Under the pieces are notes generated by a model. The model was not told where the DNA came from, searched no databases, and saw only the letters and a program-made list of their open reading frames with translations. A stretch of 64,000 bases of DNA from Ktedonobacterales bacterium (GTDB lineage Bacteria > Chloroflexota > Ktedonobacteria > Ktedonobacterales > DATBGS01). The position numbers were made by a program, and so were the translations under genes. Positions within the stretch are counted from its first letter, which is position 1. The number at the start of each line of letters is the position of its first letter. Location: assembly GCA_036557285.1 (NCBI GenBank), contig DATBHW010000073.1, positions 551 to 64,550 on the forward strand, given 5' to 3'. Positions 21,100 through 60,929 of this stretch are shown here, in pieces.

Positions 21100-21104
21100 A
21101 TCGC

Positions 21105-42342: not shown

Positions 42343-42380
42343 GATCGGCTGCTCTCTGTCAAGCCATCAGGAGAGGCTGT

Positions 42381-43085: not shown

Positions 43086-43250
43086 GGTATGGCGCCCTTT
43101 CCTAGCAACACACTCCAATTCGTGTCAATTATAGCCGCTCAATCCAACTTCACGCAATTATCCTGGCCCATATCATCCTTGCAGACGAGGGGAGCAGCAG
43201 GCGGAAGCGCCCAGCCCCGGCATAGATCTATCGAATGGTTTGGATCAGCG

Positions 43251-44825
43251 TCAGCGCATTGACGCTGCCCCGTGTGATGCCCCCATTCCGAGGGCGGCGG
43301 CGCTGTCTCTGCCAGGCTCGCTCCCCAAAAAATACATATGCGCGGCGGCGTCCAGCAGTTGGGGCGAAAGTTCCGCCGCCACGCCGTAATAGCGCGCCAG
43401 CGCCACCACATGCCTGAGCAAGTCACGCGGGTGACAGGCGCGCAGCGAGCGTCGTGTTTGTTGGTAGTGCTGGCTCAACAAATGAAGAAACCCCGTATCT
43501 GAGAAGGCCACGCCCATAGACCGACAGATGCGCATCAGAATCTCGCGGTACTGCTCTGGCGTTGGGTCGCTGATCCAGACTTTATTGGGGACGCGCCGCA
43601 GAAACGCCTCATCCACCAGATCGGCTGGCCGCAGGTTGGTCGAAAACACCACCATAGCGGCAAAGGGAAAGGCCACTTTCTGTCCATTCATCAAGGTCAT
43701 GAAATCAATGCCGCGCTCCAGTGGCACAATCCAGCGATTTAAGAGTTCCTGGGGGCGGGTCTGCTGGCGGCCAAAATCATCAATCAAGAAGACCCCGGCA
43801 GCCGCCTTCAACTGCAACGGGCATTCATAGAGACGCAGCCGGTCATTAAATTGGAGGTCGAGGCTGCTGATCACGAGTTCGCCGCCTGCGTGAACGAGCG
43901 GCGGCTGGCAGAAGACCCATCGCTCATCAATGCGCCCGCTCCCATCGGCTCCGTCCAGGGACATCGGCACATGGACTGAAGGGTCGAAGACCGGCAGCAC
44001 ATGGCCGCGTACCTCGATGGCATAGGGTACAAAAACCCCGCCAGCGAACATAGTGGTAATGGCTTCGGCAATCGCCGTCTTGCCGTTGCCTGGATGTCCC
44101 CACAGGAAAAGCGCCCCGCCGCGACTGATCGCTACCCCGATCTGATCGATAATATCATCAGCCAGCACCAGATGGCTGAGGCGCTGGCGCACAATGGCGC
44201 GCATCACGGCGGGCCGCGCCTGCACCTGCCCATTAAGCACAGAACAATAATTGACAAACGAGACGGGCGCTGGTCCCACATATCCGTTGCGCTCGAACGC
44301 TTCGCGCGCGCGGATACGCCCCTGTTCAGTGGGTCTGAAGCTCAAGGCGCTGCCGCCGACACCCATCCCAATGGAGCGGGCGCTGTCTGTCGCCCCGGCA
44401 GCCACCTCAATCAACCCATCCCGGCGTAAGACGGTCAGCAGATCATCCAGCACCCCGTTGAGCGGCAGGCGCAGTTGGGCAGATACGGCGGTGGCGCTCA
44501 GCGTCCCGCCCGCGTTGACGATCACCTTCAGCGCCAGTTCCTGAAGGAGACCAGGGTCCAGGTCGGTCTCCCCAACGGTGGTCGGGCGAAGCGGCGGCCC
44601 TTGCGTACCGCGTCGGTATCGGTCTCCTGACGTGGGGTCCATTGGCAGCGGGCCAGAGGTGCGCATGCCAGCCGACAGCGCCCCGGAGGGCCGCCCATCA
44701 CCTGATGCCGGAAGCGCGTGGGAGGGAGAAAGCGGCCCGGAAGTACGCCTTTCGCCGAGCGGGCCGCTCATGCCGCTGCCTGGGTGTCGGACGACTCCCC
44801 CCGTTTCACTGCCGCGATGTTGCAT
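43251..44825 (-). CDS. AAA+ ATPase with a disordered TSGPL-repeat N-terminus
   Basis: Walker A GHPGNGKT, Walker B VFLIDDFG and sensor-1 FSTN. The N-terminal ~90 aa is low complexity with 3 x (R)TSGPL. Confidence 0.7.
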   Translation of the reverse strand: MQHRGSETGGVVRHPGSGMSGPLGERRTSGPLSPSHALPASGDGRPSGALSAGMRTSGPLPMDPTSGDRYRRGTQGPPLRPTTVGETDLDPGLLQELALKVIVNAGGTLSATAVSAQLRLPLNGVLDDLLTVLRRDGLIEVAAGATDSARSIGMGVGGSALSFRPTEQGRIRAREAFERNGYVGPAPVSFVNYCSVLNGQVQARPAVMRAIVRQRLSHLVLADDIIDQIGVAISRGGALFLWGHPGNGKTAIAEAITTMFAGGVFVPYAIEVRGHVLPVFDPSVHVPMSLDGADGSGRIDERWVFCQPPLVHAGGELVISSLDLQFNDRLRLYECPLQLKAAAGVFLIDDFGRQQTRPQELLNRWIVPLERGIDFMTLMNGQKVAFPFAAMVVFSTNLRPADLVDEAFLRRVPNKVWISDPTPEQYREILMRICRSMGVAFSDTGFLHLLSQHYQQTRRSLRACHPRDLLRHVVALARYYGVAAELSPQLLDAAAHMYFLGSEPGRDSAAALGMGASHGAASMR

Positions 44826-45054
44826 AGTTCTAACCTCATCATCGGTACAGCGCGCAAACCTGCGCGAGACGCAGGAAATCGGCGCTGATCTTCCCTGGTT
44901 TTCCTTCCGTCGAACGTTTTCTGGCTATCGAAAGCTCCATTTATGCTCAAGTACTGATACGAATAACTGCCTCAAGAGTATCAGTGGGCGAGCGTGAACA
45001 GCTATGAGTACCAATGAAGAATACTGAAACATGCTGGAGAGCGAAGCACAAACG

Positions 45055-45096
45055 GGGCCAGTTGGCAAACGGACCGCTCCGTTTGCCAACTGGCCC
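45055..45096 (-). terminator. Strong hairpin downstream of the 4-TM protein gene
   Basis: 19-bp perfect stem GGGCCAGTTGGCAAACGGA/TCCGTTTGCCAACTGGCCC with a 4-nt loop, and a modest T-rich tail. Confidence 0.5.
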
Positions 45097-45124
45097 TGCT
45101 AACCTCTGAGGCGCAGCGAGTGCG

Positions 45125-45781
45125 CTAGAGGGCGTGGCTCTTGCCGCGCCACCCCTGCAAAGGTCGTGAACCGGCAATGCCACCTAATACTGCCAGAATC
45201 AGCCCGATCATCAGCGCAGTAAACATCGCCCAGGCGGTGGACGCCATGTTTCCACCCATAGTCATGGTAGGCGCGCCGATCCCCCCCGGAGTCCTCAATA
45301 TCACGGCAATATTGGCGCCCATAAAGCCAAGAATGCCGCCTGCGCCAATAACCACCAGAACCAGAATGGCTACGAGAGAAAGCGCCCAGGCCAGGGCGCT
45401 GTTCAGAATGGCCGCGCCCACGCCGCGCACGCCAGCGGCGCGCGCCGTGACCCAGCCGCCCAGGAAGTAGGCCACGATGCCAGTAAGGATACCCCAACCA
45501 TAAACAAAAGCAGTGGGTACGGAACCCCAGACGGTTGACCCAATAGCGGTGCCGAGTGCACCGATAACAGCCAGTGTCGCAACAATAGTGAAGAATCCAC
45601 TCCAGATCGGCCCCCAGCGAACCCAATCGCTCCAGGCCAGCGGCCCTGCCTGGCTTTTGGAGGCCGCTGAAACCCCTGGCGGTTGCTGCCCCTGGGCAGG
45701 CACGTTAGGCACGTTTGGCTGCTGGGGTATATACTCTCTCCGTAAGGGTTCTTGCTCCTGATACCCTGGTGCTTGTTGCAT
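45125..45781 (-). CDS. Gln/Pro-rich N-terminus plus 4-TM membrane protein
   Basis: Perfect AAGGAGG SD upstream of ATG 45781, and four hydrophobic helices. A strong hairpin lies downstream. Confidence 0.55.
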   Translation of the reverse strand: MQQAPGYQEQEPLRREYIPQQPNVPNVPAQGQQPPGVSAASKSQAGPLAWSDWVRWGPIWSGFFTIVATLAVIGALGTAIGSTVWGSVPTAFVYGWGILTGIVAYFLGGWVTARAAGVRGVGAAILNSALAWALSLVAILVLVVIGAGGILGFMGANIAVILRTPGGIGAPTMTMGGNMASTAWAMFTALMIGLILAVLGGIAGSRPLQGWRGKSHAL

Positions 45782-45897
45782 GAAATTCACCTCCTTAAAC
45801 CAGAGCGTATGCAGGGTCAACACCGTTACACATACTAAGAGGGTGCATAACCCATGCCACCAGGGCTGATTAGTCGCCTGGTCCATAAAGAGGGCAA

Positions 45898-45951
45898 ATA
45901 AACTTAATATTACTATTGACTTTATTAAAGCAAAGTGCTATAAACTTAATA
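45898..45951 (+). promoter_or_regulatory. DUF2089 operon promoter flanked by a 12-bp direct repeat
   Basis: TTGACT-N17-TATAAA (45916-45944). ATAAACTTAATA occurs at 45898-45909 and 45940-45951, and the second copy overlaps the -10 box. Confidence 0.45.
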
Positions 45952-46001
45952 GTTAGACCTGCACCGCAGCGCGCGAAGGCAGAGAAAGGACAGGAGCGGA
46001 T

Positions 46002-46427
46002 ATGTACGACGTAAGCGGACGTTGCCCGGTTTGTGGGGGACAAATGGCGATTACCCGCCTGGAGTGTGGGACGTGCCACAGCGCCCTGGAGGGGCAGTTT
46101 ACCGTGAATGGTTCAGGCCGAGGCGCTGGCGAAGGCGACAGCTACTTTGGCCGACTCGAACGCCTGAGCCGCGACCAGCTTGAGTTTGTTGAAGTATTCC
46201 TGCGTTGTCGCGGGATTATCAAAAATGTTGAGGCGATTCTTGATATTTCGTATCCTACCGTCAAAGCGCGGCTAAACAATGTGATTGAGAGCCTGGGTTT
46301 CCAGGTGGAAGAAGAGATGCCTGACCCTGAGCGCCGCCGCGAGCGCCGCGAAATCTTGCAGGAACTGGCCCAGGGCAAAATCACCACCGAAGAGGCCCAC
46401 CGCCGTCTGGCGGCGGAAAACGAATAA
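46002..46427 (+). CDS. DUF2089-like Zn-ribbon/HTH protein
   Basis: CPVCGGQM...CGTCH zinc ribbon and LSRDQLEFVEVFLRCRGIIKNVEAILDISYPTVKARL HTH. SHOCT-like tail QGKITTEEAHRRL. Confidence 0.75.
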   Translation: MYDVSGRCPVCGGQMAITRLECGTCHSALEGQFTVNGSGRGAGEGDSYFGRLERLSRDQLEFVEVFLRCRGIIKNVEAILDISYPTVKARLNNVIESLGFQVEEEMPDPERRRERREILQELAQGKITTEEAHRRLAAENE

Positions 46428-46447
46428 CACGACAGAGGGAGGGGATT

Positions 46448-48136
46448 ATGAGCAGCGAACAAACCGTCTCTGGCGGATTCAACCGTATCGAAATCGGGCG
46501 GGCCGAAGGCGAGCTAGAAGTGCTGGGCTGGGATGAGCCAACTATCCGTATTGTAGGGCATGATGAGGAGGACAGCCCCTACGCAGGCACTGAAGGCGTC
46601 CTGCGGCTGGAGCGTCTGCATGACGATGTGACCATCAGCGCGCCGCGCAGTGTCAGCCTCTATATCCTCAGTGCCAAGGGCGACGTGGTGATCCGTGGCA
46701 TTGGGGGGAACGTGCGCCTGGACGCGGGGGCTGGCGATGTGCAGGTACAGGACGTGGGCAGCGTGCAACTGGGCGCCATCAGCGGCGATACGCAGCTCGA
46801 AGGCTGCCAGGGGGACGCGCGCCTGAACGCTATTTCCGGCGATCTGGTGGCGCGCAACCTGGGGAGCCTGGAGATTACGGGCGCGGTCAACGGCGATCTT
46901 CAGGTGAACGATGTCGTTGGCGAGGTGAACTTGAGGCATACTGTCAATGGGGACGCGCACTTTGCCCATGTCGGCCATGTCGCTGTTTCTAACATGCGTG
47001 GCGATTGCCGCGTCACCCAGGCGGGCAGTGTGGTGGTCAGCAACCTGGGCGGGGATTTGGACGTAGAAGAGGTAGAAGGTTTCTGCCATATCCAGAACAT
47101 GCACGGCGACGCGAAGCTGCGGCAGTGCGGCGGGGTGGCGACGTTGGATAACGTGGGCGGCGATCTGCAAGCAACGGACATGCGCGGCGGCATTGCTACC
47201 GGCCATGTCAGCGGGGATGTCCGTCTGGATACTCCGCTGCTCAAAGACGCCGCCTATACGGTTCACGCTTCGGGCGACATTTCGCTGCGCGTGCGTGGCT
47301 CCTTGCACGCTCGCTTTGTGGCGCAGACGCTTGGGGGGACGATCCATACACGCCTGCCGCTTACGGTGGAGCGCGGGCGGCGGCGGCATCTGGTGGGGGC
47401 TATCGGACGAGCCGAGGCTGTTGTGACTTTGCAGAGTGATGGCGGCGACATCACGATCACCGCCGCCGATTCTACCCAGGAGGACTTCATGACCGACGAG
47501 TATAACGACACATTTGGGGACAGGGAAGAGGCTGCTACAGGCGGCGAAATGCGCTTTGGGCGCGGCTTTGGGCTCCGTTGGGACAGAGGACCAGGCCGCT
47601 TTACCTTTGCGACGGGCTATCGTGACGACCCTGATGGCCCAGGCGATCCGCGCATCCGCCGCGAGCGTGGCCGCAAGGGCAAGTTTCCTTTTGAGTGGGA
47701 CGAAACCCAGCGCGAAGACTATGAGCGCCGCATCCGCGAGATGAGTGATCGCACCGCTCAGGCCGCGCGCAAGGCCGCCGAGCGCGCCACTGAATATGCC
47801 GAGCGCGCCGCCAAGCGCGCCCGCGAAACCGATTGGGAATCCGTTGGCCGCGATGTGCGCAGTGCTATCGAGCGCGCGATGGGCGAGATGGAACATCTGC
47901 TTGAGCAGTTCCGAGGTGGCCCAGGCGCTCCTCCTCCCCCGCGCCCACCGCACGCGCCGCCCCCACCGCCCCGCCCCGGAAGCCAGGCGCAGCGCGTGCC
48001 AATTGAGCAAGATGAGCAGGCGGCTCCGCCCAACAAGGACGAGCAGGACGCGCGGCGGCGCACGATTCTTGAACAACTGCGCAGCGGCGCTATCTCGATG
48101 GATGAGGCCGAGCGCCAGCTTGATGGCCTGCGCTAA
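46448..48136 (+). CDS. DUF4097-like beta-helix repeat protein with a charged/Pro-rich C-terminal extension
   Basis: Many GD(V/L)xV repeats, then an RE-rich coiled segment, PPPPRPPHAPPPPPRP and a SHOCT-like SGAISMDEAERQL tail. GAGGGAGGGG SD. Confidence 0.7.
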   Translation: MSSEQTVSGGFNRIEIGRAEGELEVLGWDEPTIRIVGHDEEDSPYAGTEGVLRLERLHDDVTISAPRSVSLYILSAKGDVVIRGIGGNVRLDAGAGDVQVQDVGSVQLGAISGDTQLEGCQGDARLNAISGDLVARNLGSLEITGAVNGDLQVNDVVGEVNLRHTVNGDAHFAHVGHVAVSNMRGDCRVTQAGSVVVSNLGGDLDVEEVEGFCHIQNMHGDAKLRQCGGVATLDNVGGDLQATDMRGGIATGHVSGDVRLDTPLLKDAAYTVHASGDISLRVRGSLHARFVAQTLGGTIHTRLPLTVERGRRRHLVGAIGRAEAVVTLQSDGGDITITAADSTQEDFMTDEYNDTFGDREEAATGGEMRFGRGFGLRWDRGPGRFTFATGYRDDPDGPGDPRIRRERGRKGKFPFEWDETQREDYERRIREMSDRTAQAARKAAERATEYAERAAKRARETDWESVGRDVRSAIERAMGEMEHLLEQFRGGPGAPPPPRPPHAPPPPPRPGSQAQRVPIEQDEQAAPPNKDEQDARRRTILEQLRSGAISMDEAERQLDGLR

Positions 48137-48238
48137 AGACTGGCAGCAAAGACAAGGGCAGGCGTCCTCCAAAACAGGTGGAGGACGCCTGCCCTTGTCT
48201 TGTCGGCTGCTTTGACACCTCTTTTTGTCTGCCCTTAT

Positions 48239-48556
48239 GGTTCTCCCAAATCTGAGGTGTTGGCAAGCGAGGCGTGTTACTGGTAGCGCCGCCTCCCTTC
48301 GGGAAGGGCCGCTTGCCTCCCCCTGCGGGGAGCGGCCCTTGCGGGAACCAGGTTCCCGCATTCTCCCTCGCTGCGCTCGGTCGCGGGCCGCTGCTGTTGC
48401 CCCGTCCTCTCGCTCCCGGTGGTCGCTCGCGCGTCCCTCCTGGCGGCCAGCGTTGGCCTGCTGGTCCGCTGGCCTGGAGGGCGAACGCTCGCCAGGGCGC
48501 AGCGTTGGCCGCCTGGAAGGCGGCGCTACAAGTGGCCCCCGATAATTGGTGGAACC
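48239..48556. repeat. Family-A full MITE-like element (longest copy) with an 8-bp TSD
   Basis: Termini GGTTCTCCCAAATCTGAGG...CCCCCGATAATTGGTGGAACC. GCCCTTAT occurs at 48231-48238 and again at 48557-48564. Confidence 0.9.
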
Positions 48557-48646
48557 GCCCTTATGGGCGAGCTTGCGCAAAAGCCCTCAACCATGTTACA
48601 GTATGTAAGGTGAAGTGTTTTTTACACGAGGGGGAGGGAACATTAG

Positions 48647-49259: not shown

Positions 49260-50021
49260 TTAACCGCCAGCCTGCTGCCAACATGTGAGAGAAGCAGGCT
49301 GCCCCTGCACAGCCAGCGCCGCAACGTAGCCGGGACCAGGAGAGAGCGCGTGGAGCGACCAATCTGAGCTATCCTGGCCCTCTTCTCTGGTCGCCAGAAG
49401 TGCCGCTGGCTCCCCAGGAGCGAGCGAAACATCGAACAGGTTCAGGTCGAGCGAAAGACCCAGACCCCTCGCTTTGACATAGGCTTCTTTGCGGGTCCAG
49501 CAATTCAGGAAGGCTTCTTGCTTGTCCTGCGCAGCAACCGCCTGGAGCGCGTACACCTCATGGGGGGAGAAGAACCGCGTGGCGATTTGCTCATAGTCTG
49601 CGCCAGCGGGGCTGATCTGTTCGAGATCAATGCCGATAGCTCCGCAGCGTGTGATCGCGTAGAGGGCCAGGTCGTGGGAGTGCGCCAGATTGAAAAGCAG
49701 CGGCTCACTCCCTACTTCATCGGCGAGGGCTGGCTTGCCATATTCGTTGTAGGAGAAGCGCAGTGTCTGCGGCTCCCTGCTCAGATAGCGGCCCAGGATG
49801 CTTCTGAGCATGCCCCGCGCCGCGATAAAGCGGGCGCGGTCCCGTGAGAAGCGAAACTGCGACGCTCGCTGCCGTTCATCGGCAGCGAGCGTCTGCTCCA
49901 GCGCCTGCATATGTGACGCCGACAGGTTCAGCCTGGCGCGCCAGATATGCGCCTCGTCGGATGCTAAGATGGGTCGCTCTGGCGCCGCGCTCCAGAGGGA
50001 CTCCTGCGCGCTCAGCGTCAT
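49260..50021 (-). CDS. Sfp-type 4'-phosphopantetheinyl transferase
   Basis: GIDLEQI and WTRKEAYVKARG motifs. Start ATG 50021 overlaps the NRPS stop (ATGA). Confidence 0.85.
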   Translation of the reverse strand: MTLSAQESLWSAAPERPILASDEAHIWRARLNLSASHMQALEQTLAADERQRASQFRFSRDRARFIAARGMLRSILGRYLSREPQTLRFSYNEYGKPALADEVGSEPLLFNLAHSHDLALYAITRCGAIGIDLEQISPAGADYEQIATRFFSPHEVYALQAVAAQDKQEAFLNCWTRKEAYVKARGLGLSLDLNLFDVSLAPGEPAALLATREEGQDSSDWSLHALSPGPGYVAALAVQGQPASLTCWQQAGG

Positions 50022-53000
50022 ACCCGCTCTAGCTCGGCCTCCTGAACTTTTGCCAGGCAGGCGCTGAACTCTTCGGCCAGGCTGGAAAGGTGTTTGGTGA
50101 GGCAGCTCAGATGATCGCCAGGAATGACGTGCAGTTCCGTTTCTTGCGCGGCATCGGCAAGCCCGCGCCATTCGCTGGAGTCAGCGACTTCCTCTTTTGC
50201 CCAGAAGAACGTGATCTTGCCAGGATAAGCGCCAGGCGTATAAGCGGCTAACATCCAGGCAGTCATTGACCAGCGATCCCGGCAAAGCGTCGCCAGGGTT
50301 GGGAAAATCGCGCGGAGGCTGGGAAACGCCGCGCTCCCCTTGCCACGCCTGCGCCCGGCCTTGTTCATCTCCCGCCGGTACGGCGCAAACCGCAGGTACT
50401 TATAGAGGTGCCGTACCCACAGGAACGAATAGAACTGGCGATATTCTCCGATCCGCAGCGCCTTGCCAGGCAGGCTGATCGCGCGGCGCGTCAATTTGTC
50501 GGAGGCCGGAGCAGGCGGTGTGGGGTCAATCAAAACCAGCAAATCAACCTGCTGCCCTTGCCCTTGAAGCTGCCGGGCTATTTCATAGGCCAGCAGACCG
50601 CCGATGCAAAAGCCGCCCAGCAGATACGGACCTTCCGGCTGAATGGCCTGGATTGACCTTACATGCGTGGCCGCCATCGCCTCGAATGTGGGCGGAGCCT
50701 GCCGGGTATCAAACTTATACGGCTCGACGGTGTAGAAAGGCTGTTCTGGCCCCAGGTGATCAGCCAGGGGGAAGCAGTAGTAAGCGCCGCCGATGCGATC
50801 CTCGTGCATATAGAAGATCGGGCGTCTGGAACCGCCGGATTGAACCGCCACCACCGGCGCTTCGGCGATGGTAATGTCTTGTGACAGAATCTCGGCAAGC
50901 TGTTCAATCGTTGGCCCCGCAAAGAAGGTCGCCAGCGGAATCTTTTTGCCAAAGACCTGCTCGATGCCATTGACCAGGCGGGCTGCAAGGAGTGAATGCC
51001 CGCCTAAGAAGAAGAAGTTATCCCTGATCCCGATGGGCCGCGCCTCCAACAGTTCCTCCCAGAGATGGATCAGTTGATAGTGGACCATAGACATGGGCGG
51101 AACATAGTGTTCTTCCGCCGCGCTGTCCAGTTCAGGCGCGGGCAAGGCGCGTCGGTCTATTTTGCCGTTGGGCGTCTCAGGGAAGGCATCCAGCGTGGTG
51201 AAGGCCGCAGGTATCATGTAATCCGGCAGGTATTCACGCAAAAAGCTGCGCAGTTCATTGGCCTTGATTTCTTGCTGCTGGTGCGCGACGACGTAGGCGA
51301 CCAGGCGTTTGTCGCCCGGTGTATCCTCGCGGGCCAGCACCACCGCCTGCCGCACCGCCGGGTGCTGGACCAGTGTCGTCTCGATTTCGCCCAGTTCGAT
51401 GCGGAAGCCGCGAATCTTCACCTGAAAATCAACGCGCCCCAAGTGATCGATCTGCCCATCGGCGCGATAGCGGGCCAGATCGCCGGTCCTGTAGAGGCGC
51501 GCGTCTGGCCTGGCGCTAAAGGGATGGGGAATGAATCGCTCGGCGGTTAACTCCGGGCGATTGAGATAGCCGCGAGCCAGGCCGTCGCCCCCAATATAGA
51601 GTTCGCCTGGCACGCCGATGGGCGTTGGATTCAGGTGGGCGTCAAGCACGTAGATTTCTGTGTTGGCAATCGGACGCCCAATCGAGAGATCGTCTGCCGA
51701 CTGAACCAGAGAAAGCGTAGACCAGATGGTCGTTTCCGTCGGGCCGTACATGTTCCAGACGGAACCCGCTCTCGGCAGAAGCTGCGCGGCCAGTTCCGGG
51801 GGGAAAGCTTCGCCGCCGCAGAGAATCTTCAAGTACGGGCTGCCCTGCCACCCGGCGGCCAGCAGCAGCCGCCAGGTAACGGGTGTCGCCTGCATCACCG
51901 TAGCGCCGGAACGGGCCATGAGTTCGGCCAGCGCCGCGCCGTTGACAGTCGTTTCCCGGCTGGCGATGATGACCCGCGCGCCGACGATCAGCGGCAGGAA
52001 GAGTTCAAGACCGGCAATATCGAATGAGAGCGTGGTGATAGCCAGCAGCCGATCATTCGCCGTCAGCCCTGGCTGCTGGCGCATCGAGAGCAGGAAGTTG
52101 ACGACGGCGCGATGGGGAATCTGAACGCCCTTTGGCTTCCCCGTCGAGCCAGAGGTATAAATCACATAGGCCAGGTTCTCGGGGTTGGCCTGGGAGACCG
52201 GATTGAGGCTGCTCTGCTGTTTGAGCAGCGCCGCGTCGGCATCCAGGCGAACAATTTTGGCTGCGCCAGCGGGCAGTTGTGTCGTCAGGCGCTGCTGTGT
52301 GACCAGCGCCATGACCTGGGCATCCTCCAGCATGAAGGCCAGCCGTTCCTGGGGAAAGGCCGGGTCCAGTGGAATGTAGGTTCCGCCCGCCTTGAGGATG
52401 CCCAGCAGGCCCACGACCATCTCCAAAGAGCGTTCCATATACAGGCCCACGCGCACATCCGGGCCGACTCCCAGCTTCTGGAGGTAATGAGCAAGCTGAT
52501 TTGCGCGCTGGTTCAGTGCTTGATAGGTCAGTTGTTCCTTCTCATACACCAGGGCTACCCCTTCTGGTGTTCGCTGCGCCTGCGCCTCAAAAAGCTGGTG
52601 AACACACTCGTTCTCAGGATAGGCTGCCTGGGTGGCATTCCATGCTACCAGCAGTTGGCTGCGCTCCGCTTCTGTCAGCAGCGGCAGCCGAGAAAGGGGC
52701 TGGTCGGGGTTGGCTGCGATGTCTTGGAGCAAGGTCTGGAAATGCCCGGCCATCCGCTCGATGGTGGCGGCCTCAAAGAGATCGATATTGTACTCCAGCG
52801 ATCCGACCAGGCTGCCCGCCTCTTCCCAGATGTAGAGGGTCAGATCGAACTTGGACATGCTGATCTCTACGTCTAGGGAAGAGAGCGACAACCCGGCAGC
52901 CTCGACAGCGGTTGGCGCGGCATTCTGGTCGGCAATGACCACCTGGAAGAGCGGCGAATGGCTCAGGCTGCGTTCGGGGTGCAGCGCCTCCACCAACTTC

Positions 53001-54118
53001 TCGAAGGGCAGTTCATGATGGGCATACGCCTCCAGCGCCATTTTGCGTACCCGCTTGAGCAGTTCCCGAAAGCCGGGGTCGCCCGAAAGATCGGTGCGCA
53101 GCACCAGCATCGTGACCAGATACCCGATCAACTCCTGAACCTCGCTGCGGTTGCGGTTGGCGATAGGCGAACCCACCACGATGTCTTCCTGCCCAGTATA
53201 GCGGGAAAGCAGCACGTTGAAAGCCGCCAGCAAAGTCATGAAGATCGTCGCGCCTTCCTGCTGACTCAACGTCTGAATCTGCTCGGTGAGCGCCCTGGAG
53301 AGTCGAAAATTGTGGACGGCCCCACGAAAGGTCTGGATGGCCGGGCGTGGATGATCGGTAGGCAAATCCAGCACTGCGGGAGCGTCGGCCAACTGCTGTT
53401 TCCAGTAGGTAAGCTGGTCTTCCATCCGCTCCCCTTGCAGCCACTCGCGGCGCCAGAGGGCATAATCAGCGTATTGGATGGGCAGTTCAGGCAGCGGTGA
53501 TGGCTGTCCGGCGGTGAAGGCGCTGTAGAGGGTGGTCAGTTCTCGGACCAGAATACCTACCGACCACCCATCAGAGATGATGTGGTGCATGAGCAGAAGC
53601 AGGATATGTTCCTGCTCCGTCAGCCGGAACAGCATGGTCCGCAGCAGCGGCCCCTGGGCAAGATCGAATGGGCGCGTTATCTCCTCATTGATGGACTGTA
53701 TGGCTCGCGGCCAGCGCGCGCGATCTTCCAGGTCGCGCAGGTCTACCACCGAAAAAGGTAACTGGAGGGAGGAGGCGATCATCTGCACCGGGCGACCCTC
53801 GATGGCGGGGAACGTGGTACGCAAGGACTCGTGGCGTTTCACGATTTCTTGCAGGCTTTGCTCAAGCGCGGCGAGGTCGAGCGGGCCACTCAGGCGCAGC
53901 GCGTAGGGCAGATTATACGCCGCGCTGCCTGGAGTCAGTTGGTCAATGAACCAGAGCGGCTCCTGGGCAAAGGAGAGCGGTGGGTTAGACATGACCTGGC
54001 TGCGGCGCGGGATCGCCGTCGGGGTGGTCGTCACTTTTTGCTGCTCGATGAGCCGCTTCAGCAGGATTTCGCGTTTCTCCGGGGAAAGGTCTGCAATGCG
54101 TTTTGACAGGTCACTCAT
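50018..54118 (-). CDS. NRPS module 3: C-A-T-TE
   Basis: C domain MHHIISDGWS. A domain LAYVIYTSGSTGKPKG, NMYGPTE, GELYIGG and PNGKIDRRALP. T domain FFFLGGHSLL. TE domain GPYLLGGFCIGG...IPGDH. Confidence 0.95.
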   Translation of the reverse strand: MSDLSKRIADLSPEKREILLKRLIEQQKVTTTPTAIPRRSQVMSNPPLSFAQEPLWFIDQLTPGSAAYNLPYALRLSGPLDLAALEQSLQEIVKRHESLRTTFPAIEGRPVQMIASSLQLPFSVVDLRDLEDRARWPRAIQSINEEITRPFDLAQGPLLRTMLFRLTEQEHILLLLMHHIISDGWSVGILVRELTTLYSAFTAGQPSPLPELPIQYADYALWRREWLQGERMEDQLTYWKQQLADAPAVLDLPTDHPRPAIQTFRGAVHNFRLSRALTEQIQTLSQQEGATIFMTLLAAFNVLLSRYTGQEDIVVGSPIANRNRSEVQELIGYLVTMLVLRTDLSGDPGFRELLKRVRKMALEAYAHHELPFEKLVEALHPERSLSHSPLFQVVIADQNAAPTAVEAAGLSLSSLDVEISMSKFDLTLYIWEEAGSLVGSLEYNIDLFEAATIERMAGHFQTLLQDIAANPDQPLSRLPLLTEAERSQLLVAWNATQAAYPENECVHQLFEAQAQRTPEGVALVYEKEQLTYQALNQRANQLAHYLQKLGVGPDVRVGLYMERSLEMVVGLLGILKAGGTYIPLDPAFPQERLAFMLEDAQVMALVTQQRLTTQLPAGAAKIVRLDADAALLKQQSSLNPVSQANPENLAYVIYTSGSTGKPKGVQIPHRAVVNFLLSMRQQPGLTANDRLLAITTLSFDIAGLELFLPLIVGARVIIASRETTVNGAALAELMARSGATVMQATPVTWRLLLAAGWQGSPYLKILCGGEAFPPELAAQLLPRAGSVWNMYGPTETTIWSTLSLVQSADDLSIGRPIANTEIYVLDAHLNPTPIGVPGELYIGGDGLARGYLNRPELTAERFIPHPFSARPDARLYRTGDLARYRADGQIDHLGRVDFQVKIRGFRIELGEIETTLVQHPAVRQAVVLAREDTPGDKRLVAYVVAHQQQEIKANELRSFLREYLPDYMIPAAFTTLDAFPETPNGKIDRRALPAPELDSAAEEHYVPPMSMVHYQLIHLWEELLEARPIGIRDNFFFLGGHSLLAARLVNGIEQVFGKKIPLATFFAGPTIEQLAEILSQDITIAEAPVVAVQSGGSRRPIFYMHEDRIGGAYYCFPLADHLGPEQPFYTVEPYKFDTRQAPPTFEAMAATHVRSIQAIQPEGPYLLGGFCIGGLLAYEIARQLQGQGQQVDLLVLIDPTPPAPASDKLTRRAISLPGKALRIGEYRQFYSFLWVRHLYKYLRFAPYRREMNKAGRRRGKGSAAFPSLRAIFPTLATLCRDRWSMTAWMLAAYTPGAYPGKITFFWAKEEVADSSEWRGLADAAQETELHVIPGDHLSCLTKHLSSLAEEFSACLAKVQEAELERV

Positions 54119-54124
54119 CTCACG

Positions 54125-57100
54125 TCATCTCTCCGTTCGCTTGCTCTCAATTACCAGGATGTCTTGCGCTTCATGATCGGAAAGCTGCTCAAGCTCTGCG
54201 AGCAACTGGGCCGTTACTCCATCTTCGATCTGGTCGGCCTGACACTGCACAATTCTTATAGCCAGGCTGGCTATCGTTGGCGCCTCAAAGAGACTGGACA
54301 ACGGAAGCTCTATATTGAAGATGTCATGCGCCCGCGAGAGGGCGCGCACCGCCAGGAGCGAATGCCCCCCCAACTCAAAGAAGTTCTCGTTGATGCCCAC
54401 CTGCTTGAGTCCCAGCAGTTCTGTCCAGATCGCGGCCAGTTGTTCCTCGGTAGGGGTGCGCGGCGCTGCAAGAGCCGCTTCTGGCTGTTCTCTGTCGCCC
54501 TCCGGGGCAGGCAGCGCCCGCCGGTTCAGTTTGCCGTTGGGGGTCAGCGGCACATATTCTAACATAACAAATGCCGATGGGATCATATGCTCTGGCAGGT
54601 GTTCCTTCAAGAAGCCGCGCAGGGCGCTGCTGGTGGGGGACTGGCCCGCAGCAGGCACAAGATACGCCACCAGGCGCTTCTCGCCAGGGGTGTCTTCGCG
54701 GGCCACGACCACTGCCTCGCGGACCTGGGGATGCTGGCTCAGGATACTCTCGATCTCGCCTGGTTCGATACGGAAGCCCCGAATCTTCACCTGGAAGTCG
54801 GCGCGCCCGATGTACTCCAGATTGCCATCGGGATGATAGCGGGCGAGATCGCCGGTCTTGTAGAGGCGCGCGCCTGGCTCCTGACTGAACGGGTTGGGGA
54901 TAAACCGCTCGGCGGTCAGTTCCGGGCGGTTCAGATAGCCACGCGCCAATCCGTCGCCGCCGATATAGAGTTCGCCAGGCACACCGATAGGGACAGGCTG
55001 AAGGTGGGCGTCAAGCGCGTAAACCTGCAAGTTGGCGTTAGGCCGACCAATGAGTATCGTGGAAACCTCCTGATCTTCGCCCTCCCTCACCAGATCATAG
55101 GTGGTTGCGCCGATGGTTGCCTCGGTTGGGCCATAGCAGTTGCTCCAGCGAACGCGCTTAGGGACGCGCTCCTGCCAGAGCGTCAGACGCTGTAGCAGGG
55201 CTTGCTCGCCCCCCGTGATGACCCAGCGCAGGCTCTCCGGCAGCGGTGTGTTTGCTTTGGCGAGTTCATAGGTCCAGGTATGCCAGTAGGCTGTCGGGAG
55301 GTTCAGAATGCTCAGCCGCTCATGCTCTATGAGCCGGAACAATTCCTCGAAGGTCAGGGCAACCTGTACAGGCCGCAGCACCAGCGCGGCCCCCGCCAGC
55401 CAGCATGGGAAGATTTCCTCTGCTGCCGTATCAAAGCTGAGCGAAGCAAATTGCAAGATGCGATCAGCAGGCCGGACATCGAAGTGTTTGATAAAGGCCA
55501 GGTTATGGTTGACGAGCGCGCGATGGGCAATCTGAACGCCCTTCGGTTTCCCCGTAGAGCCAGAGGTGTAGATGACATAGGCCAGGTTGTCGGCCTGGAC
55601 CGCGCTGACGGGGTTCGTCGTGGGTTCTTGAGCGATTTCTGCCCACTGCCCATCCAGGCAAATGACGCGAGCGTTCTGCGCGGGAAGCTGCGCCAGCAGA
55701 TGCTGCTGCGTGAGTAGAACGGCTGCCTGGCTGTCCTCCAGCATGAAGGCCAGGCGCTCTGTGGGATAGCTGGGGTCCAGCGGCACATACGCGCCGCCCG
55801 CCTTGAAAATACCGAGGAGTCCCACCGCCATTTCCAGCGAACGCTCCACACAGAGGCCCACGAGTGTCTCTGGCCCCACCCTTTGCTTTTGGAGATGATG
55901 GGCCAGTTGGTTGGCGCGCGCGTTCAGTTCCCCATAGGTAAGCTGGCGCCCCTCGCTGACAAGAGCTACTGCGTCTGGCGCGCGCGCCACCTGCTGCTCG
56001 AAGAGCCAGTGGACACACTGGTCCTGGGGGTAATCGGCTTGGGTAGCATTCCACTCTACCAGCATCTGCTCTCGCTCGGCCTCTGGTAAGAGCAAAAGCT
56101 GGGAGATAGGTTGGTCGGGATCAACCGCGATGCCTTCCAGCAGCGTCTGGAAATGCCCAGCCATCCGCTCGATGGTCGCCGCCTCGAACAGATCGGTGTT
56201 GTAATCGAACGTGCCGCTGAGATCCTCTGGCCGCTCCTTTAAGGCGAGGCTCAGGTCAAACCCGGCGTCGAGGCCAGCCCCGATATGCAGCAGGGCGGCA
56301 GCCCACCCGGAAGGCAGGGCAGGCGGCGGCGATTCAAGCGTAAACATCGTCTGGAAGAAGGGGTTCTGCCGTGGCGCGCGCTCCGGGTGGAGTTCTTTGA
56401 CCAGATGCTCGAAGGGCATGTCCTCGTGATCCAGCGTGGAGAGCGTGGTCTCGCGTACCCGCTGAAGCAGCGCCCGGAAGCCTGGATCGCCAGAGAGGTC
56501 CAGACGCAGGGCCAGGGTATTGATGAAGACGCCCAACAGCCCACGGACTTCTTCCTGCTTGCGGCCAGCGGAAGGGGTACCAATAATGAGGTCCTCCTGG
56601 CCGGAACAGCGCGCCAACAGGACAGCGTAGGCGGCCAGCAGAGTCATGAAAAGGGTAGCGCCCCCCTGCTGGCTGAGGGCTTTGAGGGCAGCGGTTGTCT
56701 GTGCAGGCAGGGTGAACGAATGCGCGCACATCTGGCCTTTGGAGGCGACGGGACGCGGGTGATCGCCAGGCAGCGCAAGATCGGTTGGCGCTCCGGCCAG
56801 ATGATGCTTCCAGAAATCCAGATGCTCTGCCAATGCCCTTTCGTCGAGCGTTTCGCGCTGCCAGCAGGCGTAATCGGCATATTGGATGGGCAGCTCTGGC
56901 AAGAGCGAGGGCTGGCCGGTCGCATACGCCTGGTAGAGAGCATATAGCTCTGGCAGGAGTATCTGCGAGACAGAGAAGCCATCGGAGATGATGTGATGGA
57001 GGGTTAAGAACAGCCGATGCTCCTCATCGTCCAGGCAAACGAGGCGGGCGCGCAGCGGGGGCGCCTGCGAGAGATCAAAGGGCGCGGTGGTATTCTCTGC

Positions 57101-57517
57101 TGCCAGTCGCAGCGCCTCAGCTTCGCGTTCAGTCCTGGGCAGGCGGCGCAGGTCCGTGAAGGGCAGCCGGAAGATGGAGGGCGGATGAATTTGTTGGACA
57201 GGCTGCCCCTCTATCAGTGGAAAACTGGTGCGCCAAACTTCGTGACGCCGGATGAGTTCGTTGAAGCTCTGTTCAAGAGCCGCTCGATCGAGCGGCCCAG
57301 GCAGAGAGATACTCACACTCAGGTGATAGACAGGAAGATGCGGGGTGAGTCGGCTCAGCAGCCAGAATTGCTGCTGCGCAAAGGACAGCGGCACAGGCCC
57401 ATCGTGGGCGCGTCGAGTGATTGTTTCAGCATCCACGCTTGTCGGAAACAGCTTGCCCCGCAAGAGCTTTTCCAGCAGGGCGCGTTTGGCCTCAGAGAGA
57501 TTGCTTGTGTCTGACAT
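54125..57517 (-). CDS. NRPS module 2: C-A-T
   Basis: C domain LHHIISDGFS. A domain LAYVIYTSGSTGKPKG, NCYGPTE and PNGKLNRRALP. T domain FFELGGHSLL. Confidence 0.95.
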   Translation of the reverse strand: MSDTSNLSEAKRALLEKLLRGKLFPTSVDAETITRRAHDGPVPLSFAQQQFWLLSRLTPHLPVYHLSVSISLPGPLDRAALEQSFNELIRRHEVWRTSFPLIEGQPVQQIHPPSIFRLPFTDLRRLPRTEREAEALRLAAENTTAPFDLSQAPPLRARLVCLDDEEHRLFLTLHHIISDGFSVSQILLPELYALYQAYATGQPSLLPELPIQYADYACWQRETLDERALAEHLDFWKHHLAGAPTDLALPGDHPRPVASKGQMCAHSFTLPAQTTAALKALSQQGGATLFMTLLAAYAVLLARCSGQEDLIIGTPSAGRKQEEVRGLLGVFINTLALRLDLSGDPGFRALLQRVRETTLSTLDHEDMPFEHLVKELHPERAPRQNPFFQTMFTLESPPPALPSGWAAALLHIGAGLDAGFDLSLALKERPEDLSGTFDYNTDLFEAATIERMAGHFQTLLEGIAVDPDQPISQLLLLPEAEREQMLVEWNATQADYPQDQCVHWLFEQQVARAPDAVALVSEGRQLTYGELNARANQLAHHLQKQRVGPETLVGLCVERSLEMAVGLLGIFKAGGAYVPLDPSYPTERLAFMLEDSQAAVLLTQQHLLAQLPAQNARVICLDGQWAEIAQEPTTNPVSAVQADNLAYVIYTSGSTGKPKGVQIAHRALVNHNLAFIKHFDVRPADRILQFASLSFDTAAEEIFPCWLAGAALVLRPVQVALTFEELFRLIEHERLSILNLPTAYWHTWTYELAKANTPLPESLRWVITGGEQALLQRLTLWQERVPKRVRWSNCYGPTEATIGATTYDLVREGEDQEVSTILIGRPNANLQVYALDAHLQPVPIGVPGELYIGGDGLARGYLNRPELTAERFIPNPFSQEPGARLYKTGDLARYHPDGNLEYIGRADFQVKIRGFRIEPGEIESILSQHPQVREAVVVAREDTPGEKRLVAYLVPAAGQSPTSSALRGFLKEHLPEHMIPSAFVMLEYVPLTPNGKLNRRALPAPEGDREQPEAALAAPRTPTEEQLAAIWTELLGLKQVGINENFFELGGHSLLAVRALSRAHDIFNIELPLSSLFEAPTIASLAIRIVQCQADQIEDGVTAQLLAELEQLSDHEAQDILVIESKRTER

Positions 57518-57641: not shown

Positions 57642-60600
57642 TTAACTCAATAACTGCTGCAATTCTTCGTCGCTCAGCGTCTCTAGTTTGGTCAAAATCA
57701 CTTCTTCAATGGTGGCGGCCAACTCGCGGACTGTGGGCGCGTCGAAAAGGGTGCGCAAGGAAAGCTTTACCTTGAAGGTTTCGTTCATCCGCGCGATAGC
57801 CTGAGTACCCAACAAAGAATTGACCCCGATCATAAAGAAGTTCTCGTCGAGGCCAACCTGCTCCACTTTCAGGAAGCCAGCCAGGATCGCCGCCACTTCA
57901 ATTTCCATAGGCGTGCTGGGCAGTGCGCCGATCTCATCACGCACGAGATGATCGGTATCTGGCGCGGGCAGGGCGCGGCGATCCACTTTGCCGTTGGGGG
58001 TCAGCGGCATCTGCTCTACCATTACAAAGGCCGATGGTATCATGTAATCCGGCAAATACTCCTTCAGAAAGCTGCGCAGCCCCGCGTGAGCAGGCGGGTC
58101 TCCTTCGCCTGCTACGAAATAGGCCACCAGGCGCTTATCGCCTGGGGTATCTTCGCGGGCCACCACGACAGCCGCGCGTATTGCCGGATGCTGCCGGAGC
58201 AGCGTCTCGACTTCGCCCAGTTCGATGCGGAAGCCGCGCACCTTCACCTGATGATCCAAGCGTCCTAGAAAATCAATTTCCCCTGTAGGCAAATAGCGTG
58301 CCAGATCGCCTGTTCTGTAGAGCCGCGCCCCTGGATCGGCGCTAAACGGGTCGGGAACAAATCGCTCAGCCGTCAATTCCGGGCGATTGAGATACCCGCG
58401 CGCCAGACCGGCCCCGCCAATATAGAGTTCGCCAGAGACGCCAATGGGGACAGGCTGAAGGGAAGCATCGAGCAGATAGACCTGAGTGTTGGCAATCGGG
58501 ACGCCGATGGTGATCAGATTGGTATCGGGCGTGATCTGGCGGATGGTGGACCAGATGGTCGTCTCCGTTGGGCCGTAGAGGTTCCACAAAGACGCGCACT
58601 TGTTCAGCAATTGCTGAGCCAGGTCACGCGGCAGGGCTTCGCCCCCACAGAGCATCTTCAGGCGCGGGTCTCCCGACCAGCCCGCCTCCAACAGCAGCCG
58701 CCAGGTAACGGGTGTCGCCTGCATTACGGTTGTTCCGGTACGCGCCATCGTCTCCGCCAGCACCGTCCCGCTCACCGCTGTTTCGCGGCTGGCGATAACC
58801 ACCCGCGCGCCGACCAGCAGCGGCAGGAAAAGTTCAAGGGCAGCAATATCGAAGGATAACGTAGTGACGGCCAGCCAGGTATCCTCCGCCGTCAGTCCGG
58901 GCCGCTCGCGCATGGACAACAAAAAGTTCACCACCGTGCGCTGGAGTATCTGGACTCCTTTGGGCCGCCCTGTGGACCCCGAAGTGTAGATGACATAGAC
59001 CAGATTCTCGGCAGTGGACAGGCTGGCAGGGTTCGTCTGATCTTGCTCGGCCAGCAGCCGCGCGTCGGCGTCAAGGCGCACGACCTGTGCATTCTGTGTG
59101 GGCAGCAAGGACGCCAGCGTGGCTTGCGTGACGAGGACCGGAACCTGGGCATCTGTCAGCATGAAGGCCAGCCGCTCAGCCGGATATGTGGGGTCCAACG
59201 GCACATACGCGCCGCCCGCCTTGAGAATGCCCAGCAGGCCAACCTCCATCTCCAGCGAACGCTCCAGACACAGGCCCACCAGTACGTCTGGACCCACGCC
59301 AAGCTGGCGCAGGTAGTGAGCCAGTTGATTGGCACGCGCATTGAGTTCTTGATAGGTAAATGCAGCGCCCTCATAGATCACGGCTGTGGCCTGCGGTGTG
59401 CGCGCCGCCTGCTCCTCGAAAAGCTGATGAATACAGACATTGGTGGGGAACGCTCGTTGGGTGGCGTTCCACTCCTCCAGCAGTTTTTGCTCCGCTGGCG
59501 TCAGGATAGGTAAAGCAGAAAGGGGCCGATTGGGGTCAGCGACGATGCTCTCCAGCAGCGTCTGCCAGTGTCCGACCATGCGCTCGATGGTTGTCCTATC
59601 GAACAGGTCCGAGTTGTACTCGAAGCGGCCAATAAGCCCCTCTGGTCGGTCATCGAGTTCGAGGGACAGATCGAACTTGGACGTTCCGACGGTCACATCC
59701 ATCTGCGTCAGCGTCCACCCGGAGGGCAGCGCCGTCAGCGGAGGCTCCAGGGTCAGCAACACCTGGAAGAGCGGATTCTGAGCGAGGTTTCGCTCCAGTT
59801 GCAGTTCCTTGATGAGATACTCGAAAGGTACCTCTTCATAGGTAATCGCCGAGGTCGTCACTTCGCGCACGCGCATCAGCAGTTCGCGGAAGGTCGGGGC
59901 ACCGGATAAGTTGGTGCGCAGCACCAGGGTATTGAGGAAAAAGCCGATCATGCGCTCGACTTCGGGGCGCTTGCGTCCTCCGGTGGCTGTGCCGATGACC
60001 ATATCATCCTGCGCCGTATAGCGGTAAAGCAGCGTGTTGAATGCCGCCGCCAACAGGATATAGAAGGTCACGCCCTCCTGGCGGCTCAGGGCTTTGAGCG
60101 CGTCAGTCAAGGGCTTTCCAATCGCAAAGGGGCGCATGGACCCGGCGTAGGTCTGTGCTGGCGGGCGCGGGCGATCAAAAGGCAATTCTAGGGTGGCGGG
60201 CGCGCCTTCAAGCTGTTTTTTCCAATAGACAAGCTGGTCGTCGAACTTTTCCTTTGGGAGCCATTCACGCTGCCAGGCGGCGTAATCGGTATATTCGATC
60301 TCTAATGGGGGCAGCGGAGAAGGCTGGCCTGCTAAAAAAGCCTCGTAAAGCGCGCGCAGTTCTGGAAGAAACACCTGATAAATGGCAACCCCATCAAAAA
60401 TGATATGGTGCATCGTCAGGAACAGGCGATGCTCCTCATCCGCCAGTTGTATAAAGAGCGCGCGCAGCAGCGGCCCCTGGGCAAGATCGAAGAGAATGCG
60501 CGCGTCTTCTGTTGCCAGCCGCAGCGCCTCGGCCTCTCGTTCAGCTTCAGGCAGGCGCCGCAGGTCCACCAGGGGCAGCCTGACGGTTGAGGGAGGATGC

Positions 60601-60929
60601 ACCATCTGGACCGGCTGCCCATCCACCAGCGGAAAGCTGGTGCGCCAGGCTTCGTGGCGCTTGATGAATTCATTAAAACTCTGCTCCAGCGTTGCTACAT
60701 CCAGCGGGCCAGGCAGGTGAATGGTGACGCACTCGTTGTAGACAGGAATATCAGGCATCATTTGGGCGAGCAGCCACAATTGCTGCTGTCCAAAAGACAG
60801 CGGCGCAAAGCCTGTCTGAGTCCGCCGGGAGATAGCAGGGATACCTGTGGTAGCCTGCGGGAGATTGCCCCGCATCAGTTTATCCAGCAGGGCGCGTTTA
60901 GCCTCTGAGAGATTGCTTGTATCTGACAT
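57642..60929 (-). CDS. NRPS module 1: C(starter)-A-T
   Basis: Start trimmed to ATG 60929 (GGAGAAGGAA SD). C domain MHHIIFDGVA. A domain LVYVIYTSGSTGRPKG, NLYGPTE and PNGKVDRRALP. T domain with an atypical FFMIGVNSLL core. Confidence 0.95.
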   Translation of the reverse strand: MSDTSNLSEAKRALLDKLMRGNLPQATTGIPAISRRTQTGFAPLSFGQQQLWLLAQMMPDIPVYNECVTIHLPGPLDVATLEQSFNEFIKRHEAWRTSFPLVDGQPVQMVHPPSTVRLPLVDLRRLPEAEREAEALRLATEDARILFDLAQGPLLRALFIQLADEEHRLFLTMHHIIFDGVAIYQVFLPELRALYEAFLAGQPSPLPPLEIEYTDYAAWQREWLPKEKFDDQLVYWKKQLEGAPATLELPFDRPRPPAQTYAGSMRPFAIGKPLTDALKALSRQEGVTFYILLAAAFNTLLYRYTAQDDMVIGTATGGRKRPEVERMIGFFLNTLVLRTNLSGAPTFRELLMRVREVTTSAITYEEVPFEYLIKELQLERNLAQNPLFQVLLTLEPPLTALPSGWTLTQMDVTVGTSKFDLSLELDDRPEGLIGRFEYNSDLFDRTTIERMVGHWQTLLESIVADPNRPLSALPILTPAEQKLLEEWNATQRAFPTNVCIHQLFEEQAARTPQATAVIYEGAAFTYQELNARANQLAHYLRQLGVGPDVLVGLCLERSLEMEVGLLGILKAGGAYVPLDPTYPAERLAFMLTDAQVPVLVTQATLASLLPTQNAQVVRLDADARLLAEQDQTNPASLSTAENLVYVIYTSGSTGRPKGVQILQRTVVNFLLSMRERPGLTAEDTWLAVTTLSFDIAALELFLPLLVGARVVIASRETAVSGTVLAETMARTGTTVMQATPVTWRLLLEAGWSGDPRLKMLCGGEALPRDLAQQLLNKCASLWNLYGPTETTIWSTIRQITPDTNLITIGVPIANTQVYLLDASLQPVPIGVSGELYIGGAGLARGYLNRPELTAERFVPDPFSADPGARLYRTGDLARYLPTGEIDFLGRLDHQVKVRGFRIELGEVETLLRQHPAIRAAVVVAREDTPGDKRLVAYFVAGEGDPPAHAGLRSFLKEYLPDYMIPSAFVMVEQMPLTPNGKVDRRALPAPDTDHLVRDEIGALPSTPMEIEVAAILAGFLKVEQVGLDENFFMIGVNSLLGTQAIARMNETFKVKLSLRTLFDAPTVRELAATIEEVILTKLETLSDEELQQLLS

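Follow-up and report, generated by a model that had tools for sequence, protein, structure and literature searches.

The DNA analysed here, referred to as the window, is a 64,000-nt stretch of contig DATBHW010000073.1 from a Ktedonobacterales bacterium, and it encodes three nonribosomal peptide synthetases (NRPSs), the last of which, NRPS protein 3, ends in a thioesterase (TE) domain whose nucleophile elbow carries a Cys. Judged from alignments and a structural model, this domain is a genuine, intact type I TE with a Cys1171-His1336-Asp1198 triad in the canonical topology, and catalysis is predicted for it. Judging by the sequences of its relatives, the Cys is not a private substitution but the nucleophile inherited in a clade of release domains that is large, widespread and biochemically uncharacterised. 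The best explanation that we can offer, and one to which we give a little less than even confidence, is that the thioester formed on this Cys would be captured by a nucleophile other than water, with a sugar as the most likely, conjectural acceptor.

The thioesterase domain and its catalytic triad

NRPS protein 3 is a termination module in which condensation (C), adenylation (A) and carrier (T) domains precede the TE. The protein and the sites that matter for release are as follows.

50018..54118, minus strand: NRPS protein 3, C-A(Gly)-T-TE termination module (open reading frame (ORF) of 1366 aa, HEY7350647.1, Pfam domains and A-domain code)
50888..51073, minus strand: carrier (T) domain (PF00550 match), with the phosphopantetheine-site Ser1042 in GGHSL, codon 50995-50993
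50021..50863, minus strand: TE domain, residues 1086-1366 (281 residues; PF00975, AlphaFold2 model and Foldseek)
50606..50608, minus strand: Cys1171 (TGC) in the elbow G-F-C-I-G, in the column that holds the catalytic Ser or Cys in solved TEs
50525..50527, minus strand: Asp1198 (GAC) in LVLIDP, predicted triad acid at canonical position I, aligned with IVMID of AB3403 and following strand 106-112 of the model
50111..50113, minus strand: His1336 (CAT) in IPGDH, predicted triad base in the loop after strand 241-247 of the model, matching PGDH of AB3403 in a weak second alignment stretch

The Pfam layout of the protein comprises Condensation at residues 47-490, AMP-binding at 510-852 with its C-terminal part at 911-986, and PP-binding at 1016-1077. 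The TE matches PF00975 at residues 1116-1353 with 82.3 bits, against a gathering cutoff of 26.4, and lies directly C-terminal to the last carrier domain, which is the arrangement that identifies a thioesterase of a type I NRPS or polyketide synthase (PKS). NCBIfam holds no model specific to this domain, and the partial matches to its Pks13 and EntF models fall far under their cutoffs.

When the 281-residue TE was aligned by HMMER with all PDB chains, the Cys1171 column coincided with the catalytic Ser of Skyxy-TE (GWSLG), the oocydin TE (GYSMG) and the GbnD6 TE (GYSQG), and with a Cys in AB3403 (4ZXH/4ZXI), the best PDB match (E 2e-20), in which the elbow GGWCFGG faces the GGFCIGG of NRPS protein 3 and IVMID pairs with LVLID. 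An AlphaFold2 model, built from an input alignment of 20 sequences, is confident (pLDDT 88, pTM 0.87) and consists of an alpha/beta-hydrolase core with a helical lid of ~90 residues (fragment residues 120-207). The elbow is formed in this model by strand 80-85, Cys86 (Cys1171) and helix 87-101; Asp113 (Asp1198) stands directly after strand 106-112, and His251 (His1336) lies in the loop after strand 241-247. The modelled topology thus shows the features expected of a TE: the Cys sits in the elbow, the acid follows the next core strand, the His belongs to a C-terminal loop, and a helical lid is inserted between them. A Foldseek search of the PDB with the model returned type I TEs exclusively (Pks13, GbnD6, NocB, AB3403, Skyxy, fatty acid synthase and EntF), among which AB3403 has the top sequence identity (25%).

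A first-pass annotation of the window had placed a Cys (TGC, 50608-50606) in the TE nucleophile elbow, with the Asp and the His in place, and had proposed an alignment with PF00975 and known Cys-TEs as a check. Both the alignments and the model bear out the three positions, the Cys falls inside the elbow, and the ORF 50018-54118 on the minus strand contains each of the quoted strings (PEGPYLLGGFCIGGLLAYEIARQL, LVLIDP and IPGDH). The TE does lie in the interval that had been given for it (50018-50900), but the upper end of that interval is out of frame and the in-frame stretch is 50021-50863.

Conservation of the cysteine among relatives

An identical 1366-aa protein is on record from five contigs (HEY7350647.1, Ktedonobacterales metagenome-assembled genome, MAG), and the two closest homologues of the TE, at 69% identity, have the same GFCIG elbow; the Cys is therefore not a sequencing error, and the re-sequencing of the codon proposed in the first-pass annotation is largely answered. 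TCC and AGC are each one base from TGC, but an error for Ser during sequencing or assembly, or a dead domain, can practically be dismissed as an explanation, given these records, the Cys found in 98% of relatives, the intact ORF, the full triad and the coupled phosphopantetheinyl transferase gene described below.

A word-indexed search with the TE retrieved 398 homologues at E<=1e-5, and an exhaustive search over 1.84 billion cluster representatives (50% identity clusters) retrieved 469 at E<=1e-30. A scan of one genome per GTDB species with an alignment as the query found at least 591 encoded relatives, and the same kind of scan with exact TE peptides as queries found none. The relatives are distributed over Ktedonobacteria and other Chloroflexota, Actinomycetota, Acidobacteriota, Cyanobacteria, Myxococcus, Planctomycetota, Verrucomicrobiota and others. 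The triad columns, read via the Stockholm RF line across 264 retrieved relatives, contain Cys at the nucleophile position in 258 (98%) and Ser in six, and Cys is likewise present in 138 of the 144 representatives at 50% identity; the prevailing elbow among clade members is G[FWY]CNG. The acid and base columns vary more than the Cys (Asp in 190/264, His in 194/264), and entire subgroups are without them. Near-invariance of the Cys over ~470 clusters suggests that selection acts on the thiol. The description "Cys instead of Ser" was accordingly right as to the residue and not as to its origin, since the Cys is a conserved state of the clade. With a Cys opposite the catalytic Ser of characterised TEs and conserved among homologues, the domain displays the sequence features expected of a Cys-type TE. 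Cys-type TEs account for ~2% of TEs, those of polymyxin and macolacin included (2026 study, PMC13288461), and the TE of NRPS protein 3 is a documented rare type, less exceptional than it had been framed.

At four loci from Streptosporangiaceae and other Actinomycetes MAGs (L025, L035, L040 and L041), the acid site of the Cys-TE domains is Asn (LVNP) and the base site is without His (EGALM); the Cys is the sole triad residue kept, so that, as far as sequence can tell, the catalytic mechanism must differ there. A link between the Cys and the terminal amino acid was considered, AB3403 and NRPS protein 3 both ending in Gly, and was rejected: the 106 terminal A-domain codes read in the clade are diverse and cover Gly, Ser, Thr, Val/Ile, Lys/Orn-like and beta-Ala-like types. 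A literature search on GXCXG, Ktedonobacteria NRPS and AB3403 products found no study of this Cys-TE clade.

The assembly line and its genomic surroundings

By Pfam, the three co-directional NRPS genes encode C-A-T, C-A-T and C-A-T-TE proteins, and a 4'-phosphopantetheinyl transferase (PPTase) gene, whose ATG overlaps the stop codon of NRPS protein 3 (ATGA, 50021-50018), follows them.

57642..60929, minus strand: NRPS protein 1, C-A(Gly)-T, 1095 aa, code DILQLGLIWK, intact HHIIFDG (Pfam, code and source-contig gene call)
54125..57517, minus strand: NRPS protein 2, C-A-T, 1130 aa, code DTENIGCIGK, substrate uncertain, possibly Orn/Lys-like (Pfam and code)
49260..50021, minus strand: Sfp/HetI-type PPTase, 253 aa, HEY7350646.1 (Pfam ACPS, NCBIfam HetI-like)

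Stachelhaus codes were taken by alignment to GrsA-PheA, whose reference sequence returned DAWTIAAICK at the canonical positions and is thereby validated. The terminal A domain, in NRPS protein 3, has the code DILQLGMIWK, and we take this code and the DILQLGLIWK of module 1 to be classical Gly codes. The terminal module is thus indicated by its code to be Gly-specific, in agreement with the C-terminal Gly module noted at first pass. The code of module 2, DTENIGCIGK, with Glu at position 239, is presumably closest to the Orn/hydroxy-Orn code DMENLGLINK, an assignment of low confidence. The HHxxxDG motif is intact in all three C domains and the carrier Ser in all three T domains, which together with the coupled PPTase indicates a predicted active assembly line.

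No loading module, acyl carrier protein (ACP) or acyl ligase was found within the 64-kb window. Ranked against the PDB to see whether it is of the lipo-initiation (starter) type, the first C domain is best matched by C domains of the ordinary LCL type; the starter domains of CDA and RzmA lie outside the top 60. NRPS proteins 1 and 2 begin with near-identical stretches of 23 residues, MSDTSNLSEAKRALLDKLMRGNL (60861-60929, minus strand) and MSDTSNLSEAKRALLEKLLRGKL (57449-57517, minus strand), and their C-terminal tails, LETLSDEELQQLL and LEQLSDHEAQDIL, are also similar. With such termini and with intact leading C domains, the order of the proteins is uncertain and iteration is possible. The mechanical ORF of NRPS protein 1 starts at TTG 61154, and the stretch 60930-61154 (minus strand) is probably an over-extension; the ATG at 60929 is adopted as the start (1095 aa) because the gene call on the source contig (L089) and the paralogous N-termini both point there.

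Genes for glycan assembly recur around the relatives of the TE. As counted by phmmer with seed proteins from annotated contigs, such genes (glycosyltransferases of families GT2 and GT4, Wzx-like, Bac_transf, polysaccharide deacetylase and UDP-Glc dehydrogenase) lie within 10 kb in 29 of 55 loci of the GxCNG type, and a glycan gene on the same strand abuts the TE ORF (<=400 nt) in 14 of the 53 nearest loci, which Pfam confirmed for L049 and L019; glycan-assembly genes are mostly missing from the more distant loci. Many of the nearest relatives are not NRPS termini and are instead proteins of ~330 aa encoded after an A-T didomain (Leu code DAWFLGNVVK) and a P450, with GT2-GT2-Wzx-like genes directly after them, and other relatives, from Chloroflexota and Actinomycetota alike, consist of a single C-A-T-TE protein within an operon of this kind. 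The cassette that recurs in Ktedonobacteria runs A-T (DAWFLGNVVK), P450, Cys-TE (stand-alone or C-A-T-TE), GT2, GT2, Wzx-like, and it was located in other Ktedonobacteria at the following loci.

L003, 6642-14980: cassette locus
L004, 1793-7496: cassette locus
L048, 8494-14775: cassette locus
L049, 3355-14624: cassette locus

Several of the stand-alone cassette TEs have Gln in place of the triad His (PGKQM, PSKQM). At three further loci (L002 11977-14274, L023 7626-9785 and L029 11199-13234), genes for a PALP enzyme and an ornithine-cyclodeaminase-like protein adjoin the Cys-TE gene. We take this pair to resemble SbnA/SbnB of 2,3-diaminopropionate synthesis, 2,3-diaminopropionate being the residue that SulM cyclises to a beta-lactam; by this analogy lactam chemistry could be worth looking for at these three loci, in contrast to the window.

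The closest full-length relative (P0121, 58% TE identity) is encoded on L086 in the order A-T-C-A-T, hexapeptide-repeat acyltransferase, C-A(Gly)-T-TE and ATGA-coupled PPTase, and these genes are flanked by an epimerase, GT4, GT61 and Bac_transf. Positions 14889-24104 of L086, which comes from a related MAG, are syntenic with 38734-46930 of the window but inverted relative to the NRPS-PPTase operon, an arrangement that, read from gene order, is consistent with one inversion. The syntenic block holds Bac_transf (38734-39630 in the window), an MshEN-domain protein, a response regulator (94% identical), proteins of 524 aa and 253 aa, DUF2089 and DUF4097. On the other side, positions 11642-21446 in the numbering of L089 (source contig) correspond to window-equivalent 63837-73641, mostly past the window end. 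Beyond the NRPS genes lie a response regulator, a histidine kinase and a 1063-aa ORF with a weak HAD-like match, and beyond the latter, on the NRPS strand, GT1-like, NAD-epimerase/dehydratase, GT4 and two GT9 genes, followed by a Wzx-type Polysacc_synt gene. On this gene order, the glycan association extends to the NRPS locus of the window, although in non-operonic form.

Tailoring genes were sought at 29-49 kb of the window, and none was clearly tied to the NRPS; the region contains MFS transporters, an M19 dipeptidase, a HEAT-repeat protein, a phosphoesterase, a FAD monooxygenase and the Bac_transf and MshEN-domain genes. A 688-aa ORF (46514-48580, minus strand), which has no Pfam match and is antisense to a DUF4097 (toastrack) gene (46448-48136, plus strand), is probably a spurious long ORF, as expected at 60% G+C.

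Release mechanism and comparison with known thioesterases

The (acyl?-)Gly-X-Gly chain made by the three C-A-T modules would move from the phosphopantetheine arm on Ser1042 to Cys1171 by energy-neutral transthioesterification, giving a peptidyl-S-Cys1171 thioester. This thioester would then be resolved by a nucleophile other than water, so that the domain would act as a transferase and not as a hydrolase. The favoured acceptor, which is a conjecture, is an amine or hydroxyl of a sugar, glycan or glycolipid intermediate from the flanking glycosyltransferase, Wzx and Bac_transf genes. Non-hydrolytic release is favoured because replacement of the Cys by Ser gives hydrolysis in both Cys-TEs in which it has been made: MacB-TE yields the cyclic product only and its C89S mutant hydrolysis only (PMC13288461), and the C1146S mutant of ObiF is predominantly hydrolytic (PMC6668435). 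The general lesson of the tested Cys-TEs would be that a thiol is retained where capture of the acyl-enzyme by a nucleophile other than water is required. A sugar-borne acceptor is favoured because of the gene context, the co-occurring deacetylases and the Pks13-like fold. That this domain and its clade of ~470 clusters as a whole are carrier-protein-dependent peptidyl or aminoacyl transferases onto sugars in glycan or glycolipid pathways of the Wzx/Bac_transf type is possible, though we regard it as doubtful. On this reading, the acceptor could for instance be an amino sugar unmasked by the co-encoded deacetylases, and the thiol would have been retained since a thioester acyl-enzyme partitions to amine or hydroxyl acceptors over water.

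Several points weigh against capture by a sugar acceptor and the supporting comparison with AB3403. The GFCIG sub-branch to which the window belongs, with a hydrophobic residue after the Cys, has glycan genes in 0 of 3 loci, all of them short or truncated, and the neighbourhood counts are raw counts of Cys-TE loci. The glycan genes on the source contig are not contiguous with the NRPS operon: the response regulator, the histidine kinase and the opposite-strand 1063-aa ORF intervene on one side, and on the other Bac_transf lies beyond ~9.6 kb of unrelated genes. It is equally conceivable that the glycosyltransferases glycosylate a product released beforehand. The 38% identity to AB3403 extends over the N-terminal 118 residues alone, and a Ser-type TE reaches 34% over ~115 residues. 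All steps beyond the identification of the domain are, moreover, inferred.

A plain hydrolase, in which the Cys is merely inherited and a linear (acyl-)Gly-X-Gly acid is released, would agree with the complete and canonical triad, with the unhindered nature of Gly thioesters, with an operon that contains no acceptor-making gene and with the diverse terminal A-domain codes of the clade, which imply no single special chemistry. We nevertheless hold it to be improbable, because the hydrolysis that follows from Cys-to-Ser replacement in both mutated Cys-TEs suggests that the Cys is kept to avoid this outcome (PMC13288461, PMC6668435), and the residue is nearly invariant over the whole clade. Quite unlikely, in our estimate, is intramolecular aminolysis or cyclo-oligomerisation, by which a side-chain amine of residue 2, or the N-terminal amine after dimerisation, would give a lactam or a cyclic hexapeptide. 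A basic residue, suggested by the resemblance of the module 2 code to the Orn/hydroxy-Orn type, would supply the side-chain amine, but this substrate assignment is weak and the ring closed from three residues would be strained, with 9 or 10 members; the docking-like N-termini of NRPS proteins 1 and 2 could permit iteration, but the intact leading C domain in every module suggests an acylated, unavailable N-terminus. The Cys-TEs of the polymyxin family are efficient macrolactam cyclases, but MacB-TE is reported to cluster with Ser-type cyclases and not in a Cys clade (PMC13288461).

A beta-lactone or beta-lactam TE of the ObiF/SulM type, which the first-pass annotation had also judged unlikely, is effectively refuted. 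The GxCxG nucleophile is common to all three, and ObiF and SulM form a thioester acyl-enzyme; however, in ObiF and SulM Gly occupies position I and the Asp has moved to position II, a relocation treated as diagnostic (PMC6668435, PMC11298585), SulM is further marked by a cationic pocket and the motif Gln-Cys-Asn (PMC11298585), and their substrates bear a beta-OH or a beta-sulfamate-amine (PMC6668435, PMC11298585). The TE of the window has its Asp at position I, Phe-Cys-Ile for Gln-Cys-Asn, and a terminal Gly with neither beta-OH nor beta-NH2, and neither the ObiF nor the SulM TE was retrieved by TE-only sequence and profile searches of the PDB at E<=0.01. A Dieckmann cyclase of the free-standing NcmC/TrdC kind was also considered and rejected: the domain in the window is fused, the upstream unit is an amino acid without a beta-keto carbon, and the match to the NcmC profile is marginal (E 0.0066).

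Few Cys-TEs are characterised, namely ObiF, SulM and PmxB/MacB, with AB3403 known by structure only, and the locus gives access to a phylogenetically broad, Cys-conserving clade of which no member is assayed or solved and which recurs in glycan-assembly operons. A single Cys nucleophile with a canonical triad is in itself an expected, documented variant; the added value lies at the level of the clade, where variable acid and base positions and repeated embedding in glycan operons make the reason for the Cys a testable question. If clade members transfer to sugars, this would constitute a new bacterial route for placing non-ribosomal peptides on surface polymers, and the conservation of the thiol would be explained.

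Among known systems, AB3403 (ABBFA_003403, PDB 4ZXH/4ZXI, Acinetobacter baumannii) is the closest relative and the best solved match (E 7.5e-23 in a profile search). It is the only solved TE besides ObiF and SulM with a nucleophilic Cys, and its Asp is at position I (PMC11298585). Both proteins thus have a nucleophilic Cys in a G-aromatic-C-hydrophobic-G elbow and the acid at position I, and both are single C-A-T-TE polypeptides with a Gly-activating A domain (PMC5376624) and a PPTase in the operon. In contrast, there is almost no alignment over the lid and the C-terminal half (0.7 bits). The AB3403 operon (A1S_0112-0119) encodes an acyl-CoA synthetase, an acyl-CoA dehydrogenase, a free ACP and an RND pump; evidence for Ac-505, its putative product, comes from mass spectrometry only (PMC5376624). 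None of these operon partners is present in the 64-kb window, and the TE of NRPS protein 3 is not a demonstrated member of the AB3403 system.

The list of known Cys-TEs in the first-pass annotation, correct as to ObiF and SulM, had omitted AB3403 and the polymyxin and macolacin TEs (PMC11298585, PMC13288461). By their published description, PmxB-TE and MacB-TE share with the domain in the window a Cys-His-Asp triad whose acid occupies the canonical site, and their Cys is needed for aminolytic release; they carry out efficient macrolactamisation without hydrolysis and cannot use oxoester substrates (PMC13288461). Some Cys-type TEs naturally carry Asn or Ser as the acid, and the acid site tolerates both (PMC13288461); the natural Asp-to-Asn/Glu variation in the clade of the window resembles this tolerance. 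The systems differ in that PmxB and MacB cyclise lipodecapeptides via Dab4 to a 7-residue ring, whereas the NRPS line here makes three residues. Because the polymyxin and macolacin Cys-TEs perform ordinary macrolactamisation, a Cys nucleophile alone does not, by analogy, imply exotic chemistry.

The TE of Pks13, which transfers mycolate to trehalose (PMC11649247), provides a parallel in fold and in the proposed reaction. It gives the top Foldseek matches (E ~4e-14, TM ~0.6) and the best partial NCBIfam match, it has a large helical lid, and it is an acyltransferase onto a sugar acceptor (PMC11649247), although it has a Ser nucleophile, a PKS context, a lipid substrate and only ~19% identity. 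If the Cys-TE of NRPS protein 3 and its clade are indeed transferases onto sugars, they would represent for NRPSs what Dlt D-alanylation and mycolyl transfer by Pks13 are in their own pathways, and would serve to decorate the cell surfaces of Ktedonobacteria and Actinomycetota.

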